A stretch of DNA of 64,000 bases from a bacterium. GTDB lineage: Bacteria; Patescibacteriota; Minisyncoccia; Moranbacterales; UBA1568. How positions within the stretch are numbered: the first letter of the stretch is position 1; every line of letters starts with the position of its first letter. The stretch lies in contig JAKACP010000001.1 in assembly GCA_021821305.1 (NCBI GenBank), forward strand, positions 532,349 to 596,348, written 5' to 3'. The position numbers and the translations under genes are program-made. Below the pieces are notes generated by a model. It was not told the origin of the DNA. It saw nothing but the letters and a program-made list of their open reading frames with translations, and did no database searches. Positions 15,536 to 19,739 of this stretch are shown piece by piece.

Positions 15536-16867
15536 ATGCGCGCAACGACGCGGCCCGGCTCCTCGACACCCATGAATATCATTCTCGCATCGCTCGGGGA
15601 TTTCTTACACGGCATCGGCGCGGCGTTCTCGCTCTTCGGGAGCGTGTGGTACTTCGTCCTGCCACCCTTGCTCTACCCGATCTTCAAGATACTCTGGATG
15701 GATCACATCCAGGGCCGATACGCCGCGTCTTTCCAATTCGTCCTGCTTGAGATCATTCCTCCGAAGGAGATAGAGAAGAGCCCGCAGCTCATGGAATCCA
15801 TCTATTCCGGGCTCGCCGGCGTCCTGAAGGGCTACAATGTGGTCGAGGAATTCATCCTGGGACATTTCCCGGCCTCGTTCAGTCTCGAGATGGTGAGCCG
15901 CGGCGGAGCGGTCCATTTTTACATACGCACCCAGAAGGGGTTCCGCAACCTCGTGGAGGCGCATTTCTACGCGCAGTATCCCGACATGGAGATAAGCGAG
16001 GTGCCGGACTACGTGGACGACGTGCCGCGGACCCTGCCGAACAGCGACTGGGATCTCTGGGGGACGGATTTCGATCTGGTCAAACCCGACCTCTATCCGA
16101 TCAAGACCTATCGGTTCTTCGAGGAGGATGTCACCGGCAAGATGATAGATCCCATCGCGGGGCTCATCGAGGCGCTCGGGCGCCTCGGCCCGGATCAGAA
16201 CATGTGGTTCCAGATGATCATCGCTCCCGAGAAGGATGCCTGGTACAAGAAGGGACAGGGGATGGTCGACGATTTCCTCGGCAAGGAGAAGAAGGAATCG
16301 ACGAACTTCCTGGCGAAGGTGTGGGCCGATATCGCGGACATACTCGCCAATATCATACCGGGCATGTTCGGCGCGGCCGCCTTTTCGGCCGGCGAGGTCA
16401 AGGAGCAGAAGCAGGAACAACCCCTCGAGTTCCGCCTGTCGCCGGGACAGAAGGACGTATTGAAGGCGCTCGAATCGAACCTCGGCAAGCAGATGTTCCG
16501 GACCAAGATGCGCCTCCTCTATGTCGGGCGCCGGACCGGGTTCGACAAGACGAACATCTCCATGTTCATGGGAGCGCTCAAACAGTTCAACGATCAGAAC
16601 CTCAACGGTTTCAAACCCAACGACAACTCGAAGACCTACGCGAACTATATCTTCGTGAACGAGCGCCTGCGGTTCCGCCAGCGTCGGATTTTCCGGCGAT
16701 ACCTGAACCGCGATCCTTCGCCGGGCGACAAGATGTTCGAACTCTCCACCGAGGAGCTCGCCACCTTGTTCCACATGCCGGACATGTCCGTGATGGCGCC
16801 GGCGTTCACCCGTGTGGCGGCCAAGCGGGCCACGGCCCCCTCCAACCTTCCTATCCTTGAAGAATGA
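15536..16867 (+). CDS. membrane-anchored hypothetical protein, first gene of the T4CP-like ATPase operon
   Basis: AGGGGA SD upstream. Two N-terminal TM helices then a ~380-aa soluble domain. ATGA overlap with the next gene. Confidence 0.5.
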   Translation: MRATTRPGSSTPMNIILASLGDFLHGIGAAFSLFGSVWYFVLPPLLYPIFKILWMDHIQGRYAASFQFVLLEIIPPKEIEKSPQLMESIYSGLAGVLKGYNVVEEFILGHFPASFSLEMVSRGGAVHFYIRTQKGFRNLVEAHFYAQYPDMEISEVPDYVDDVPRTLPNSDWDLWGTDFDLVKPDLYPIKTYRFFEEDVTGKMIDPIAGLIEALGRLGPDQNMWFQMIIAPEKDAWYKKGQGMVDDFLGKEKKESTNFLAKVWADIADILANIIPGMFGAAAFSAGEVKEQKQEQPLEFRLSPGQKDVLKALESNLGKQMFRTKMRLLYVGRRTGFDKTNISMFMGALKQFNDQNLNGFKPNDNSKTYANYIFVNERLRFRQRRIFRRYLNRDPSPGDKMFELSTEELATLFHMPDMSVMAPAFTRVAAKRATAPSNLPILEE

Positions 16868-18882
16868 CCCCTATGCCCGAACAGAACGAGATCAGTTTCT
16901 TCGCGAGAACCGACTTCCGCAACGAGAGTCGGATTTTCGGCATCAAGACGGACGACCGGCGGCGACACATGTACGTCATCGGCAAGACGGGTATGGGTAA
17001 GACCAACCTGCTCGAGAACCTCGCCATCCAGGACATCAAGCACGGCAAGGGCGTCGCGTTCATCGATCCGCACGGCGATACCGCGGAGAAACTCATCAAG
17101 GCGATACCGGCGAACCGTATCAACGATGTCATCTATTTCAATCCGGCCGATCAGGATTTTCCGATCGCGTTCAACGTGATGGAGAACGTGAATCCGGAAT
17201 ACAAGCACTTGATCGCGTCGGGGCTCGTCGGCGTGTTCAAGAAACTCTGGGCCGATTCGTGGGGTCCGCGGCTCGAATACATCCTCCGCAACGCCATCCT
17301 CGCCCTGCTCGAGTATCCGGGGTCGACGCTTCTCGGCGTGACGCGCATCCTCGTCGACAAGGACTATCGGGAAAAGGTGGTGGCCAACGTGAGCGACCCG
17401 GTCGTGCGCGCCTTCTGGGTGGACGAGTTTTCCAAGTGGAACGACCGCGTTCTCCAGGAGGTCATCTCGCCTATCCAGAACAAGGTCGGCCAGTTCCTCT
17501 CGACATCTCTCATCCGCAACATCGTCGGGCAGACCAAATCGTCCTTCGACGTGCGCGAGGCCATGGACAGCAACAAGATCCTCATCATGAACCTCTCCAA
17601 GGGCCGGGTCGGCGAGGACGCCAGCGCCCTCATCGGCGCGATGATGATCACCAAGATCCAGCTCGCCGCGATGGAGCGCGTCGACATCCTGGAGGAAGAG
17701 CGCAAGGATTTCTACCTCTACGTCGACGAGTTCCAGAACTTCGCCACCGAATCGTTCGCGAACATCCTCTCCGAGGCCCGAAAATACCGGCTCAACCTCG
17801 TCCTCGCGAACCAGTACATCGCCCAGCTCGATGAGAAGGTGAGCGACGCGGTCTTCGGCAACGCGGGAACGATCATCTCGTTCCGCGTCGGTGCGGCGGA
17901 TGCGGAGCTTCTCGAGAAGGAATTCGAGCCCATATTCATGATGAACGACATCGTCAATCTCCCGAAATACCATATCTACCTCAAGCTCATGATCGACGGC
18001 ATCGCGGGGGACGCGTTTTCCGCCACGGTGCTTCCGCCGATATCGATCGAGGACACGACGGCCAACGAGGAAAAGGTCATCCGAAGCTCGCGGGAACGCT
18101 ACACGTCGTCGAAACAGGAAGTCGAGGACAAGATCCGCAGATGGAGCGGCATGCTCACCGAAAGCGAGCGCGCGGAACTCCTGAAACAGAAGTCGGCATC
18201 ACCCGCGCCGCGCACCGCCCAAGCGCCCGCCCGCCCGACGCAGACCTCCGCGCATGGTGAGCACGCGCCTGCCCGGTCGAAACCCAAGACCGCGTATGTG
18301 ATACAGCCGCACCGCGAAGAAACGCCGGCGCCCGCTCCTGCACCGTCTCCCGCTCCCGTGGCACCGGCGCCGCTCCCCGAAGTCCCGACGGAAAAGATCG
18401 TCGAGGCACCGGCCGAGGTCGTCGTTCCGACCCTCGATCAGTTCCTCGCCACGGCCGCCCCGGAGACACCTGAGCCTGAATCCGTTCCCGCGCCGCCGGA
18501 AGAAGCGCCTTCCTACCCGGCGCTCTGCGATACCTGCGGCATGGAGATACGCGTCCCGTTCAAGCCGGACGGCAACCGCCCCACCTTCTGCAAGGAATGT
18601 TTCAAGACATATCAGCGTACCCTCGCGCGTGCCCGCGAGAGCCAGGACCGACCGCCGAAGGAGCACGAACCCGCGCCGCGACCCGCACACCGAAGCGTTC
18701 CGCCGCGGGCATCGAAGCGCTCCACGATTTCACGTGTCTACGAGCCATCGTCCGCTCCGATCTCGCTCTCCCAGGCGGCGCTTGTCGCCCCGAAAAAATT
18801 CAAGCCGCTCCGTGAGCACCGATCGCCCGATCTCGGCGCCGTCCGGGATATCCTCGACCGGGCGAAACATAAGGAACGATGA
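16864..18882 (+). CDS. FtsK/HerA/TraD-VirD4 superfamily P-loop ATPase (T4 coupling protein-like/DUF87-like) with Pro/Ala-rich linker and C-terminal C4 zinc ribbon
   Basis: Walker A IGKTGMGKTN, Walker B LYVDEFQNF, SEARKYRLNLVLANQ...AGTIISFRVG motif, then PAPAPAP linker and CDTCG-x17-CKEC. Confidence 0.65.
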   Translation: MTPMPEQNEISFFARTDFRNESRIFGIKTDDRRRHMYVIGKTGMGKTNLLENLAIQDIKHGKGVAFIDPHGDTAEKLIKAIPANRINDVIYFNPADQDFPIAFNVMENVNPEYKHLIASGLVGVFKKLWADSWGPRLEYILRNAILALLEYPGSTLLGVTRILVDKDYREKVVANVSDPVVRAFWVDEFSKWNDRVLQEVISPIQNKVGQFLSTSLIRNIVGQTKSSFDVREAMDSNKILIMNLSKGRVGEDASALIGAMMITKIQLAAMERVDILEEERKDFYLYVDEFQNFATESFANILSEARKYRLNLVLANQYIAQLDEKVSDAVFGNAGTIISFRVGAADAELLEKEFEPIFMMNDIVNLPKYHIYLKLMIDGIAGDAFSATVLPPISIEDTTANEEKVIRSSRERYTSSKQEVEDKIRRWSGMLTESERAELLKQKSASPAPRTAQAPARPTQTSAHGEHAPARSKPKTAYVIQPHREETPAPAPAPSPAPVAPAPLPEVPTEKIVEAPAEVVVPTLDQFLATAAPETPEPESVPAPPEEAPSYPALCDTCGMEIRVPFKPDGNRPTFCKECFKTYQRTLARARESQDRPPKEHEPAPRPAHRSVPPRASKRSTISRVYEPSSAPISLSQAALVAPKKFKPLREHRSPDLGAVRDILDRAKHKER

Positions 18883-19739
18883 TGACCACGAGGAACCGGA
18901 AAATCATCGCGGCGTTTTTCGCGTTCGTCTTCCTGATCGCGGGGGCATGGCTGTTCCGCGAGCCGCTCTCACGCGTGGCCGAACGGCTGTCCATCTATAC
19001 GGCGTATCGGGACGGGGGAAACTTCTATAGGACCGCGGAGCGCTCGGATTTCCGTACCGACGAACGGTGGCTTCATGCGCTTCTGTTCGATCATATGCGT
19101 GAAGGCATGCGCGGCGATGCCAGGCATCTCCCCGGCGATCCGTTCGACAAGGTGCTCGGCGAGAGCCGCCGCGCGTGGAAGGTGTTCCCGTTCGCGGGTC
19201 CGGTGTCGATGGGGAATCGCCAGGGTTATGCCGTCGGGACCGACTACCGGTCCTTCATGCAGGACCCGTGGGATGACCTTGTCCTGCGCTCTCTCTACTG
19301 TGATGTTTACGGGTACTCCGATGAGGACTTCCGCGTGCTCGGAACCCTTTCTCCCGATGGCGGATATACCGATACGCACGTCCTTCTCGCTCTGCTCTTC
19401 CTGCGCGAGAACGGATGCTATGACCGCCCCGAACGCGAGTTCGCGATACGGACGGTCTCGGACATGCTCGTCCGTGCCGCGGAGCAGGATGGGGACTGGA
19501 GCGATCTTTTTTCCGAACGCATCGTGTTTTTGTACTGGGCCGGGGAAGGGGCGCGCGTGAAGCCGGAATGGATCGATCGGATCGTCAGCGCGCAGGAACA
19601 AGACGGCGGCTGGGCGGACGAGGCGTGGGGCGAGGGGTCGAACCCGCATTCGACCGGACTTTCGATGCTCGCCCTCCGGTATTTCCTTGAGGAGAAGGGG
19701 AGCGCGGAGTTTCTTTCCCCGCTTGACCGGGCCGAATGA
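18879..19739 (+). CDS. membrane-anchored protein with prenyltransferase/squalene-cyclase-like QW repeats
   Basis: N-terminal TM and two QxxDGxW motifs (EQDGDWSD, QEQDGGWADE). ATGA overlap with the upstream ATPase gene. Confidence 0.45.
   Translation: MMTTRNRKIIAAFFAFVFLIAGAWLFREPLSRVAERLSIYTAYRDGGNFYRTAERSDFRTDERWLHALLFDHMREGMRGDARHLPGDPFDKVLGESRRAWKVFPFAGPVSMGNRQGYAVGTDYRSFMQDPWDDLVLRSLYCDVYGYSDEDFRVLGTLSPDGGYTDTHVLLALLFLRENGCYDRPEREFAIRTVSDMLVRAAEQDGDWSDLFSERIVFLYWAGEGARVKPEWIDRIVSAQEQDGGWADEAWGEGSNPHSTGLSMLALRYFLEEKGSAEFLSPLDRAE

Follow-up and report, generated by a model that had tools for sequence, protein, structure and literature searches.

A conserved gene pair of Patescibacteria as a candidate split motor of the VirB4/VirD4 superfamily

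Coupling proteins of type IV secretion systems (T4CPs and T4SSs, respectively) are DNA-dependent ATPases, as is established for TrwB and TraD, and the C-terminal extension of TraD binds a DNA-bound partner. Much of bacterial diversity belongs to the Patescibacteria, and the function of most genes conserved among them is not known. Here we describe a T4CP-like ATPase gene (gene 2, product P2) in a window of 64,000 nucleotides (nt), the whole stretch of DNA that was analysed, from a chromosome of Moranbacteria-type Patescibacteria (candidate phyla radiation, CPR). The gene lies between a gene for a membrane-anchored protein of the DUF8128 family (gene 1, product P1) and a third open reading frame (ORF; gene 3), all read in the same direction (Table 1). 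On balance we consider it probable that genes 1 and 2 each encode one half of a single Patescibacteria motor, which is chromosomal and inherited vertically. What is new here is the split form of this VirB4/VirD4-superfamily motor, an architecture that had not been described and that is widespread in the group.

The available part of a survey by Quinonero-Coronel et al. 2025 (PMC12102498) reports 5,713 VirD4-like T4CP homologues, spread over 2,918 of the 3,035 Patescibacteria genomes (96%), with only 148 of them near virB4 and most not linkable to a secretion system, and it raises exaptation of these homologues as a possibility. P2 probably belongs to this set. The same part of that article mentions no DUF8128 partner, no fold related to the VirB4 N-terminal domain (NTD), no helix-turn-helix (HTH) neighbour, no zinc ribbon and no phage fusions. 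Wang et al. 2023 do not mention a coupling protein in their main text, and our literature searches found no paper mentioning DUF8128, nothing relevant on TrwB_AAD_bind and nothing linking HARE-HTH with CPR.

P2 scored above the Pfam gathering thresholds for TrwB_AAD_bind (5e-12), TraG-D_C, DUF87 and T4SS-DNA_transf; its score against PF10412 was 45.8 bits, with a cut-off of 20.5, and the DUF87 match was marginal (27.0 bits, cut-off 23.2). A profile built from 26 divergent orthologues and searched against the Protein Data Bank (PDB) found TrwB (7.3e-8), followed by DotL (3.8e-7), DptH (4e-5), HerA (1.2e-3) and VirB4 (4ag5; 6e-3), and TrwB was also the best PDB match for P2 as a single sequence. 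The VirB4-type ATPase signatures AAA_10 and CagE_TrbE_VirB were absent from the Pfam results for P2. An earlier note on this stretch had read in P2 a Walker A motif (GKTGMGKT), a Walker B motif (YVDEFQNF) and an RKY...Q motif, and all three, the last as ARKYR...Q (R303...Q314), vary little or not at all among divergent orthologues. By these motifs P2 appears catalytically intact. The note's placement of the ATPase in the FtsK/HerA/VirD4 superfamily agrees with the Pfam and PDB profile results, which narrow it to what is likely the coupling-protein branch of FtsK/HerA/VirB4/VirD4 proteins. Its description of the ATPase as free of transmembrane (TM) segments also held, as a Kyte-Doolittle scan found no TM or hydrophobic segment in P2 (19-residue maximum 1.26).

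Downstream of the ATPase domain, the Pro/Ala-rich linker varies in length and sequence between orthologues, whose ORFs span 441-789 amino acids (aa). The CDTCG-x17-CKEC zinc ribbon of the earlier note was borne out by matches over cut-off to PF23477 (4.3e-11, 42.8 bits against 27) and TIGR04272 (7.8e-12, 44.7 bits against 36). For this CxxC-x17-CxxC domain, zinc binding has been demonstrated in small proteins of Methanosarcina (PMC12704099). The ribbon is carried by 68 of 69 Moranbacteria orthologues; because only 29 of 52 divergent orthologues have it, it is an accessory module rather than a hallmark. Many of the orthologues that lack the ribbon (tails in L093-L164) end in a helix-like motif, approximately K-V-D-x3-L-R-x2-L-E, and the tail of gene 2 in the window holds a related sequence at 18820-18870, DLGAVRDILDRA. 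Written as a regular expression, this motif was found in 26 of the 52 divergent tails and in 4 of 69 Moranbacteria tails, and it is poorly defined because so few of the latter are recovered.

Some of these matches could be taken to indicate a module of the HerA/DptH/MADS type that defends against phages or plasmids. In addition to the DptH and HerA entries in the PDB profile search, PADLOC matched P2 to mad8 (6.7e-16) and weakly to HerA, and matched the protein encoded upstream of gene 1 weakly to MzaA. However, the P2 matches are limited to the P-loop core that these families share, DUF8128 has no PADLOC match, and no nuclease (including the NurA type), methylase or other effector is linked to the genes, which in every locus set are placed among housekeeping genes and are not patchy or island-borne. 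The defence reading of the mad8 and HerA matches was rejected on this core-gene behaviour, and we regard such a role as very improbable.

The DUF8128 family (PF26449) is recorded for the 443-aa product at the matching position of the source-contig locus (L001, 100% identical over the P1 region), and on all 120 homologues listed for gene 1. It comprises 2,547 clusters at 50% identity, 880 of these at E <= 1e-30, and the members named in two cluster look-ups come from Parcubacteria, Uhrbacteria and Moranbacteria. P1 contains a single hydrophobic stretch of about 30 residues, with a borderline Kyte-Doolittle maximum of 1.59, and W26, P31, P32, F38 and W42 are nearly invariant in the homologue alignment. 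The earlier description of P1 as a two-TM protein is not established, because there is one borderline stretch and the AlphaFold2 (AF2) model shows residues 2-46 as one long helix. When the AF2 model of P1 (predicted local distance difference test, pLDDT, 72) was compared with the PDB by Foldseek, the top nine matches were all TrwK/VirB4 chains of R388 (E 1.4e-5 to 3.8e-4, probability 1.0), and the region matched by the soluble domain of P1 was the VirB4 NTD. Foldseek further matched the model to gp156 of phage G (5.5e-17) and to the N-terminal part of the VirB4-type gp155 (9.1e-7), both in BFVD, and to a 913-aa homologue of phage JL (5.2e-15).

P1 ends, after a disordered stretch, in a conserved [AP]PxNLP[FIV] peptide, which was present in 78 of 80 and 67 of 79 gene 1 tails and in which P423, N425, L426 and P427 are invariant (alignment A1). 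This peptide looks like a candidate short docking motif. Longer DUF8128 members (P0341, P0358, P0369, P0381, P0405 and P0411) carry a low-complexity extension of 100-250 residues that ends in a second copy of the peptide.

We compared the gene order in two sets of loci. The first consisted of 80 species loci of Moranbacteria, obtained by scanning genome contigs with peptide patterns specific enough to return Moranbacteria alone; the second consisted of 80 divergent metagenomic loci in which gene 1 is 32-61% identical, and whose records carry no taxonomy. All 80 Moranbacteria loci have the HTH gene, gene 1 and gene 2 in this order, which proves little on its own because most other neighbours are kept too. 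In the divergent loci the linkage to dnaX, ClpB and HtrA is lost, and gene 2 lies directly downstream of gene 1 in 66 of the 70 loci with room for it. In these loci, whose gene 1 reaches only 32-61% identity, identity over the ATPase domain is 55-85%.

The two genes are also found fused in phages. In the phage protein family phrog_5156 (824 positions), the match to P1 covers positions 78-357 and that to P2 covers 407-817. By tblastn, the ATPase was located in the C-terminal half of phage G gp156 (825 aa; 4e-43 with P2), D6E ORF23 (752 aa) and CP-51 gp91 (911 aa). By hhalign, the DUF8128 profile aligned with the N-terminal halves of the same proteins (97.9%/3.1e-13, 96.4%/1.3e-9 and 79.5%/1.5e-5, respectively), and a phmmer search with gp156 picked up both genes 1 and 2 among the window ORFs. 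A tblastn search of gene 1 against phage genomes gave no match, and the phage N-terminal domains are visible to profile and fold methods only. Fusion of this kind is a "Rosetta stone" signal, and genes 1 and 2 therefore seem to work together. Their adjacency in both locus sets and their fusion in phages support the view that they form a widely conserved functional pair, resembling one protein cut in two, and fit the earlier suggestion that the membrane protein provides in trans the anchor that is missing from the ATPase.

The surroundings of the fused phage genes have features of their own. In phage CP-51 (L167:329-5814) five small ORFs separate the fused protein from an annotated "partition protein" upstream of it, and the fused protein is directly followed by a "replication initiation by nicking" protein; in phage D6E (L168:418-4562) an annotated "partition protein" lies about 1 kb upstream. 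This neighbourhood suggests a DNA replication or segregation module. In phage G (L085:1220-5362) gp155 adjoins gp156 and both share the same N-domain fold, the C-terminal half of gp155 being a VirB4/TraG-type P-loop and that of gp156 the T4CP-like ATPase, so that this phage genome contains a VirB4-like/VirD4-like pair.

Directly upstream of the pair, and co-directional with it, is the HTH gene, whose product combines Sigma70_r4 and HARE-HTH domains. It occupies this position in all 80 Moranbacteria loci and in 51 of the 58 divergent metagenomic loci with room, and it, not gene 3, appears to be the conserved third member of the locus. Its product is a candidate DNA-recognition partner or regulator. 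The immediate neighbours in the window are housekeeping genes (dnaX, a GtrA-like gene, DivIC, PPIase, HtrA and ClpB). Elsewhere in Patescibacteria the pair typically comes after secD-secF and the HTH gene and before genes such as efp or mnmA. The order secD-secF-HTH-DUF8128-ATPase on one strand was seen in about 41 of the 80 divergent loci (L090:892-3540, L092, L093, L099 and others) and is absent from the Moranbacteria window; it may be residual synteny or a hint of membrane translocation.

The earlier note had reported no T4SS parts within ±15 kb, and this observation extends further: among the proteins scanned across the 64-kb window there was no T4SS, relaxase, pilin or competence gene, the window has no second VirB4/T4CP-like ORF, and no T4SS gene or relaxase occurs among the conserved neighbours of the 160 loci. 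A search of 2.9 million viral contigs for DUF8128 returned one partial match. Given this single match and the housekeeping context, the module behaves as a vertically inherited core gene set and not as a mobile or defence island.

These results bear on the idea that P2 is an orphan T4CP that serves a Patescibacteria T4SS encoded elsewhere, for delivery of DNA or protein, with DUF8128 in place of the TM domain. The best family matches of P2 are indeed TrwB, TraD, VirD4 and DotL, and a VirB4-NTD-like partner could plausibly dock into the inner-membrane complex of a T4SS. The available part of the Patescibacteria survey counts VirB4 in 2,417 of 3,035 genomes, so that about 80% have a VirB4-based T4SS, and notes that t4cp genes can be, and often are, far from virB4 (PMC12102498). 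By the same account, however, genomes with T4CP homologues outnumber those with VirB4 (2,918 against 2,417), only 148 of the 5,713 homologues are near virB4, and the homologue of S. epibionticum is reported as non-essential although the T4SS is essential (PMC12102498). The window holds no detected T4SS gene, and the conserved neighbours are the HTH protein and housekeeping genes, not mating-pair formation (MPF) genes. We consider service to a distant T4SS possible but unlikely.

The genomic context also invites comparison with FtsK/SpoIIIE-like DNA pumps that act in chromosome segregation or division; DUF8128 would then tether the ATPase at the membrane or septum and the HTH protein would direct it. 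The module has the character of a core gene set with a highly conserved ATPase, the fused phage homologues lie beside partition proteins, and a DivIC/FtsB gene follows in most Moranbacteria loci. This last linkage is lost outside Moranbacteria, however, and P2 has neither a FtsK_SpoIIIE Pfam match nor a gamma domain, which leaves a pump of this type looking distinctly unlikely to us.

We propose that genes 1 and 2 encode a split motor that would work as follows. DUF8128 would be held in the membrane by its N-terminal hydrophobic segment, exposing its VirB4-NTD-like domain to the cytoplasm. This domain would recruit, by physical contact, the soluble ATPase, which is expected to form a hexamer as T4CPs do, and the pair would rebuild in trans the layout "N-terminal domain plus ATPase" of VirB4 and of the fused phage proteins. 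Most likely it would use ATP to handle or translocate DNA at the membrane, with the HTH protein as a putative DNA-recognition adaptor or regulator. In those lineages that have them, the disordered tail and zinc ribbon may provide an extra module for binding nucleic acids or a partner. DNA is most likely the substrate, since the ATPase activity of coupling proteins depends on DNA, two domains of the HTH neighbour bind DNA, the tail often has a zinc ribbon, and the phage fusions lie beside partition and nicking-replication genes. A wider reading, which we put forward tentatively and consider less likely than not, is that the HTH protein, DUF8128 and the ATPase make up a T4SS-independent, membrane-tethered DNA translocation machine, broadly distributed in Patescibacteria and representing an evolutionary intermediate between VirB4 and VirD4. 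Such a machine might possibly be a motor for DNA uptake and processing in organisms unable to make nucleotides, or a chromosome-segregation pump.

Several observations weigh against a split DNA motor or limit how far it can be taken. P2 scores far under every NCBIfam whole-protein cut-off for TraD/VirD4 (SXT_TraD 56.9 bits against 366, TOL_TraD 37.9 against 648, CD1115 35.4 against 250). In 4 of 70 loci DUF8128 has no adjoining ATPase, and it is followed by ribosomal-protein genes and rpoA, by NusA, or by a glycosyltransferase. The named DUF8128 members found belong to Parcubacteria-type lineages only. The TM-scores (a measure of structural similarity) of P1 against TrwK/VirB4 are low, 0.29-0.38, and by sequence methods (profile, Pfam, hhalign) DUF8128 shows no similarity to VirB4 N-domains or TrsD: the DUF8128 profile had no match among PDB sequences, a Pfam scan of 39 family members gave nothing consistent and no VirB4 N-domain family, and hhalign with TrsD of pSK41 gave a probability of 0.2%. 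Because the TM-scores are low and the relationship is invisible to sequence methods, we hold with moderate confidence that DUF8128 and the VirB4 NTD are homologous at the level of the fold. The HTH gene could also be a housekeeping gene in its own right that happens to lie next to the pair. Finally, secD-secF lies just upstream in about 41 of the 80 divergent loci, which could be residual synteny or could indicate the handling of protein instead of DNA.

Gene 3 was taken in the earlier note as the third member of a triad, a TM-anchored QW-repeat protein with two QxxDGxW motifs of the prenyltransferase/squalene-cyclase alpha-toroid kind. The anchor is clear (residues 7-25, Kyte-Doolittle) and one strict conserved QxxDGGW motif is present (QEQDGGW, 19593-19613), whereas the second, EQDGDW, falls outside the QxxDGxW pattern and its G is not conserved. 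The assignment to prenyltransferases and squalene cyclases was not supported either: no Pfam or NCBIfam family matches at E <= 0.1, and the AF2 model, all-helical with a pLDDT of 86.7, has only weak fold matches in the PDB (E >= 0.36), mostly to alpha/alpha toroids such as GH105, transcobalamin, C3d and class II terpene cyclases; these hint at a toroid but are too weak to establish one.

As an obligate third component, gene 3 would be expected to accompany the pair. Locally it does look like part of the operon, since it overlaps the stop codon of gene 2 and is followed by a terminator-like hairpin, so that it is probably co-transcribed here. Among the 160 loci, however, it was found only in its own species and the two closest sampled relatives (L005 and L007), whereas 78 of the 80 Moranbacteria loci lack it, as do all 80 metagenomic loci. 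In 5.8 billion proteins it has 21 homologues, against thousands for genes 1 and 2, and the distant ones among them have pilin-like or unrelated housekeeping genes for neighbours and no such ATPase in their vicinity. As a general model the triad is already refuted, and we give almost no credence to gene 3 as an obligate component. Its distribution suggests that it was inserted at the 3' end of the operon recently and in this lineage only, and that it is no part of the machine.

The exact boundaries of the three genes depend on the choice of start codons. Most gene 1 homologues are about 431 aa long, which corresponds to a start at M13; the gene-caller, in agreement with identical database proteins, gives 669 aa for gene 2 and, with a start at 18882, 285 aa for gene 3. 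The earlier note had the genes coupled through ATGA overlaps. ATGA is indeed seen at both junctions (16864-16867 and 18879-18882), but the start codons are uncertain, so the first coupling is too, and in 150 related loci the gap between genes 1 and 2 is short (median 10-18 nt) and overlap is rare. Near-identical copies of the locus occur on ENA and Logan contigs, with the three genes about 100% and the neighbouring genes 92-100% identical; the gene 3 protein is additionally recorded on another, larger contig. The named close homologues of genes 1-3 are all from Moranbacteria.

Table 1. Positions of the genes, motifs and predicted signals of the locus, numbered within the window
Feature	Coordinates	Strand	Basis and remarks
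HTH gene, Sigma70_r4 + HARE-HTH DNA-binding protein, 359 aa	14227..15306	+	Pfam: Sigma70_r4 1.5e-11, HARE-HTH 5.5e-10
Sigma-70-like promoter match TTGAAA-17-TATACT, upstream of gene 1	15266..15294	+	Consensus scan only, not evidence of function
Gene 1, DUF8128 (PF26449), longest ORF 443 aa, probable start 15572 (431 aa)	15536..16867	+	PF26449 database records, AF2, Foldseek
N-terminal hydrophobic segment of gene 1, residues ~14-43 (431-aa form), presumed anchor of 1-2 spans	15611..15700	+	Hydropathy, AF2
Conserved C-terminal [AP]PxNLP[FIV] peptide of gene 1 (APSNLP)	16835..16852	+	Alignment, tail scan
Gene 2, soluble T4CP-like P-loop ATPase, longest ORF 672 aa, gene-caller and database proteins 669 aa from 16873	16864..18882	+	Pfam, profile against PDB
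Walker A of gene 2, GKTGMGKT	16981..17004	+	G37, G40, G42 and K43 invariant across 26 divergent sequences, phage G gp156 among them
Walker B region of gene 2, YLYVDEFQNF	17713..17742	+	E286 invariant; D285, F287, Q288 and F290 nearly so
Pro/Ala-rich low-complexity linker of gene 2, ATPase domain to zinc ribbon	18196..18513	+	Translation
CxxC-x17-CxxC zinc ribbon of gene 2, CDTCG-x17-CKEC (zf_Tbcl_2 / TIGR04272)	18514..18609	+	Pfam, NCBIfam
Gene 3, N-terminal TM anchor + all-helical domain, 286/285 aa	18879..19739	+	Hydropathy, AF2, homologue search
Terminator-like hairpin + T-run directly 3' of gene 3	19741..19763 (hairpin 19741-19753)	+	Consensus scan only

Other parts of the window and of the locus sets deserve brief mention. 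On the reverse strand at 13152-13961, divergent from the HTH gene, a 269-aa protein without a Pfam match is encoded; it is 55-77% identical across Moranbacteria and stands in the same position in all Moranbacteria loci that reach that far. A second Clp/Hsp100-like AAA+ protein of 990 aa is encoded at 34604-37576, 8.5 kb from the canonical ClpB (23425-26046), with C-terminal AAA_2 and ClpB_D2-small domains and weak AAA_16/NACHT-like matches N-terminal of AAA_2. Between 40000 and 62000 the fraction of G and C falls from about 0.60 to 0.40-0.50 over some 20 kb. This block encodes glycosyltransferases of families GT2 and GT4, sugar-nucleotide epimerases/dehydratases, a DegT aminotransferase, a 923-aa LCAT/lipase-like protein with an Ig-like domain and a Fic protein. 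We rejected it as a mobile element or T4SS island, as its genes form a glycosylation cluster, and it seems to be a cluster for surface glycans that either was acquired horizontally or evolves fast. Dozens of metagenome-assembled genomes labelled "uncultured Bdellovibrionales bacterium" (L006, L016, L018-L024 and others) have the Moranbacteria gene order, from dnaX through the GtrA-like gene, HTH, DUF8128 and the ATPase to DivIC and onward, at 57-73% identity, and these labels are probably wrong.

Our analysis adds to an orphan ATPase a DUF8128 membrane partner, a fold link between that partner and the VirB4 NTD, a conserved DNA-binding neighbour and fusions in phages of Bacillus and Geobacillus, hosts that can be cultured in the laboratory. 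The orphan ATPase thereby becomes a testable hypothesis of DNA handling at the membrane, one that bears on how reduced, host-dependent cells acquire or segregate DNA and on how the two T4SS ATPase families diverged.

Among described systems, T4CPs (TrwB of R388, TraD, VirD4 and DotL) are the closest sequence relatives of P2, which has the Walker A/B core in common with them and shares a long C-terminal extension. T4CPs carry their TM domain on the same polypeptide, whereas P2 has none and may obtain its anchor in trans from gene 1. Gene 2 further differs from them in being chromosomal and core-gene-like, with no T4SS or relaxase linked to it in the 64-kb window, and in pairing with a VirB4-NTD-like protein, a partner that canonical T4CPs do not have.

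With VirB4 (TrwK) the pair has a common layout, a membrane-side N-terminal domain and a C-terminal P-loop ATPase, and the DUF8128 model matches the N-domain of TrwK. P2 itself is nearer to T4CPs (VirB4 6e-3 against TrwB 7e-8). In VirB4 both domains reside on one polypeptide, whereas here they are encoded by two genes and are fused only in the phage relatives; unlike in VirB4 systems, no VirB3, VirB6 or VirB8 gene lies near genes 1 and 2. The available part of the Patescibacteria survey describes TrsD, a small protein that is akin to the VirB4 N-terminus and has a gene of its own beside VirB4 (PMC12102498). In pSK41/pGO1 this small VirB4-N-terminal-like protein is encoded directly upstream of the ATPase TrsE, just as gene 1 precedes gene 2. 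BLASTP of P2 against TrsE and TrsK of pSK41 gave matches to the P-loop only, or nothing; the split between genes 1 and 2 is analogous to that of TrsD/TrsE, and DUF8128 is not a TrsD family member.

The phage proteins of phrog_5156 are homologous to genes 1 and 2 in both halves and unite them in one polypeptide. They have no hydrophobic N-terminus, their alignments beginning at the soluble domain, and no zinc ribbon was noted in them. The neighbours of the fused phage genes encode a partition protein and a nicking replication initiator, whereas the pair of Patescibacteria stands beside the HTH gene.

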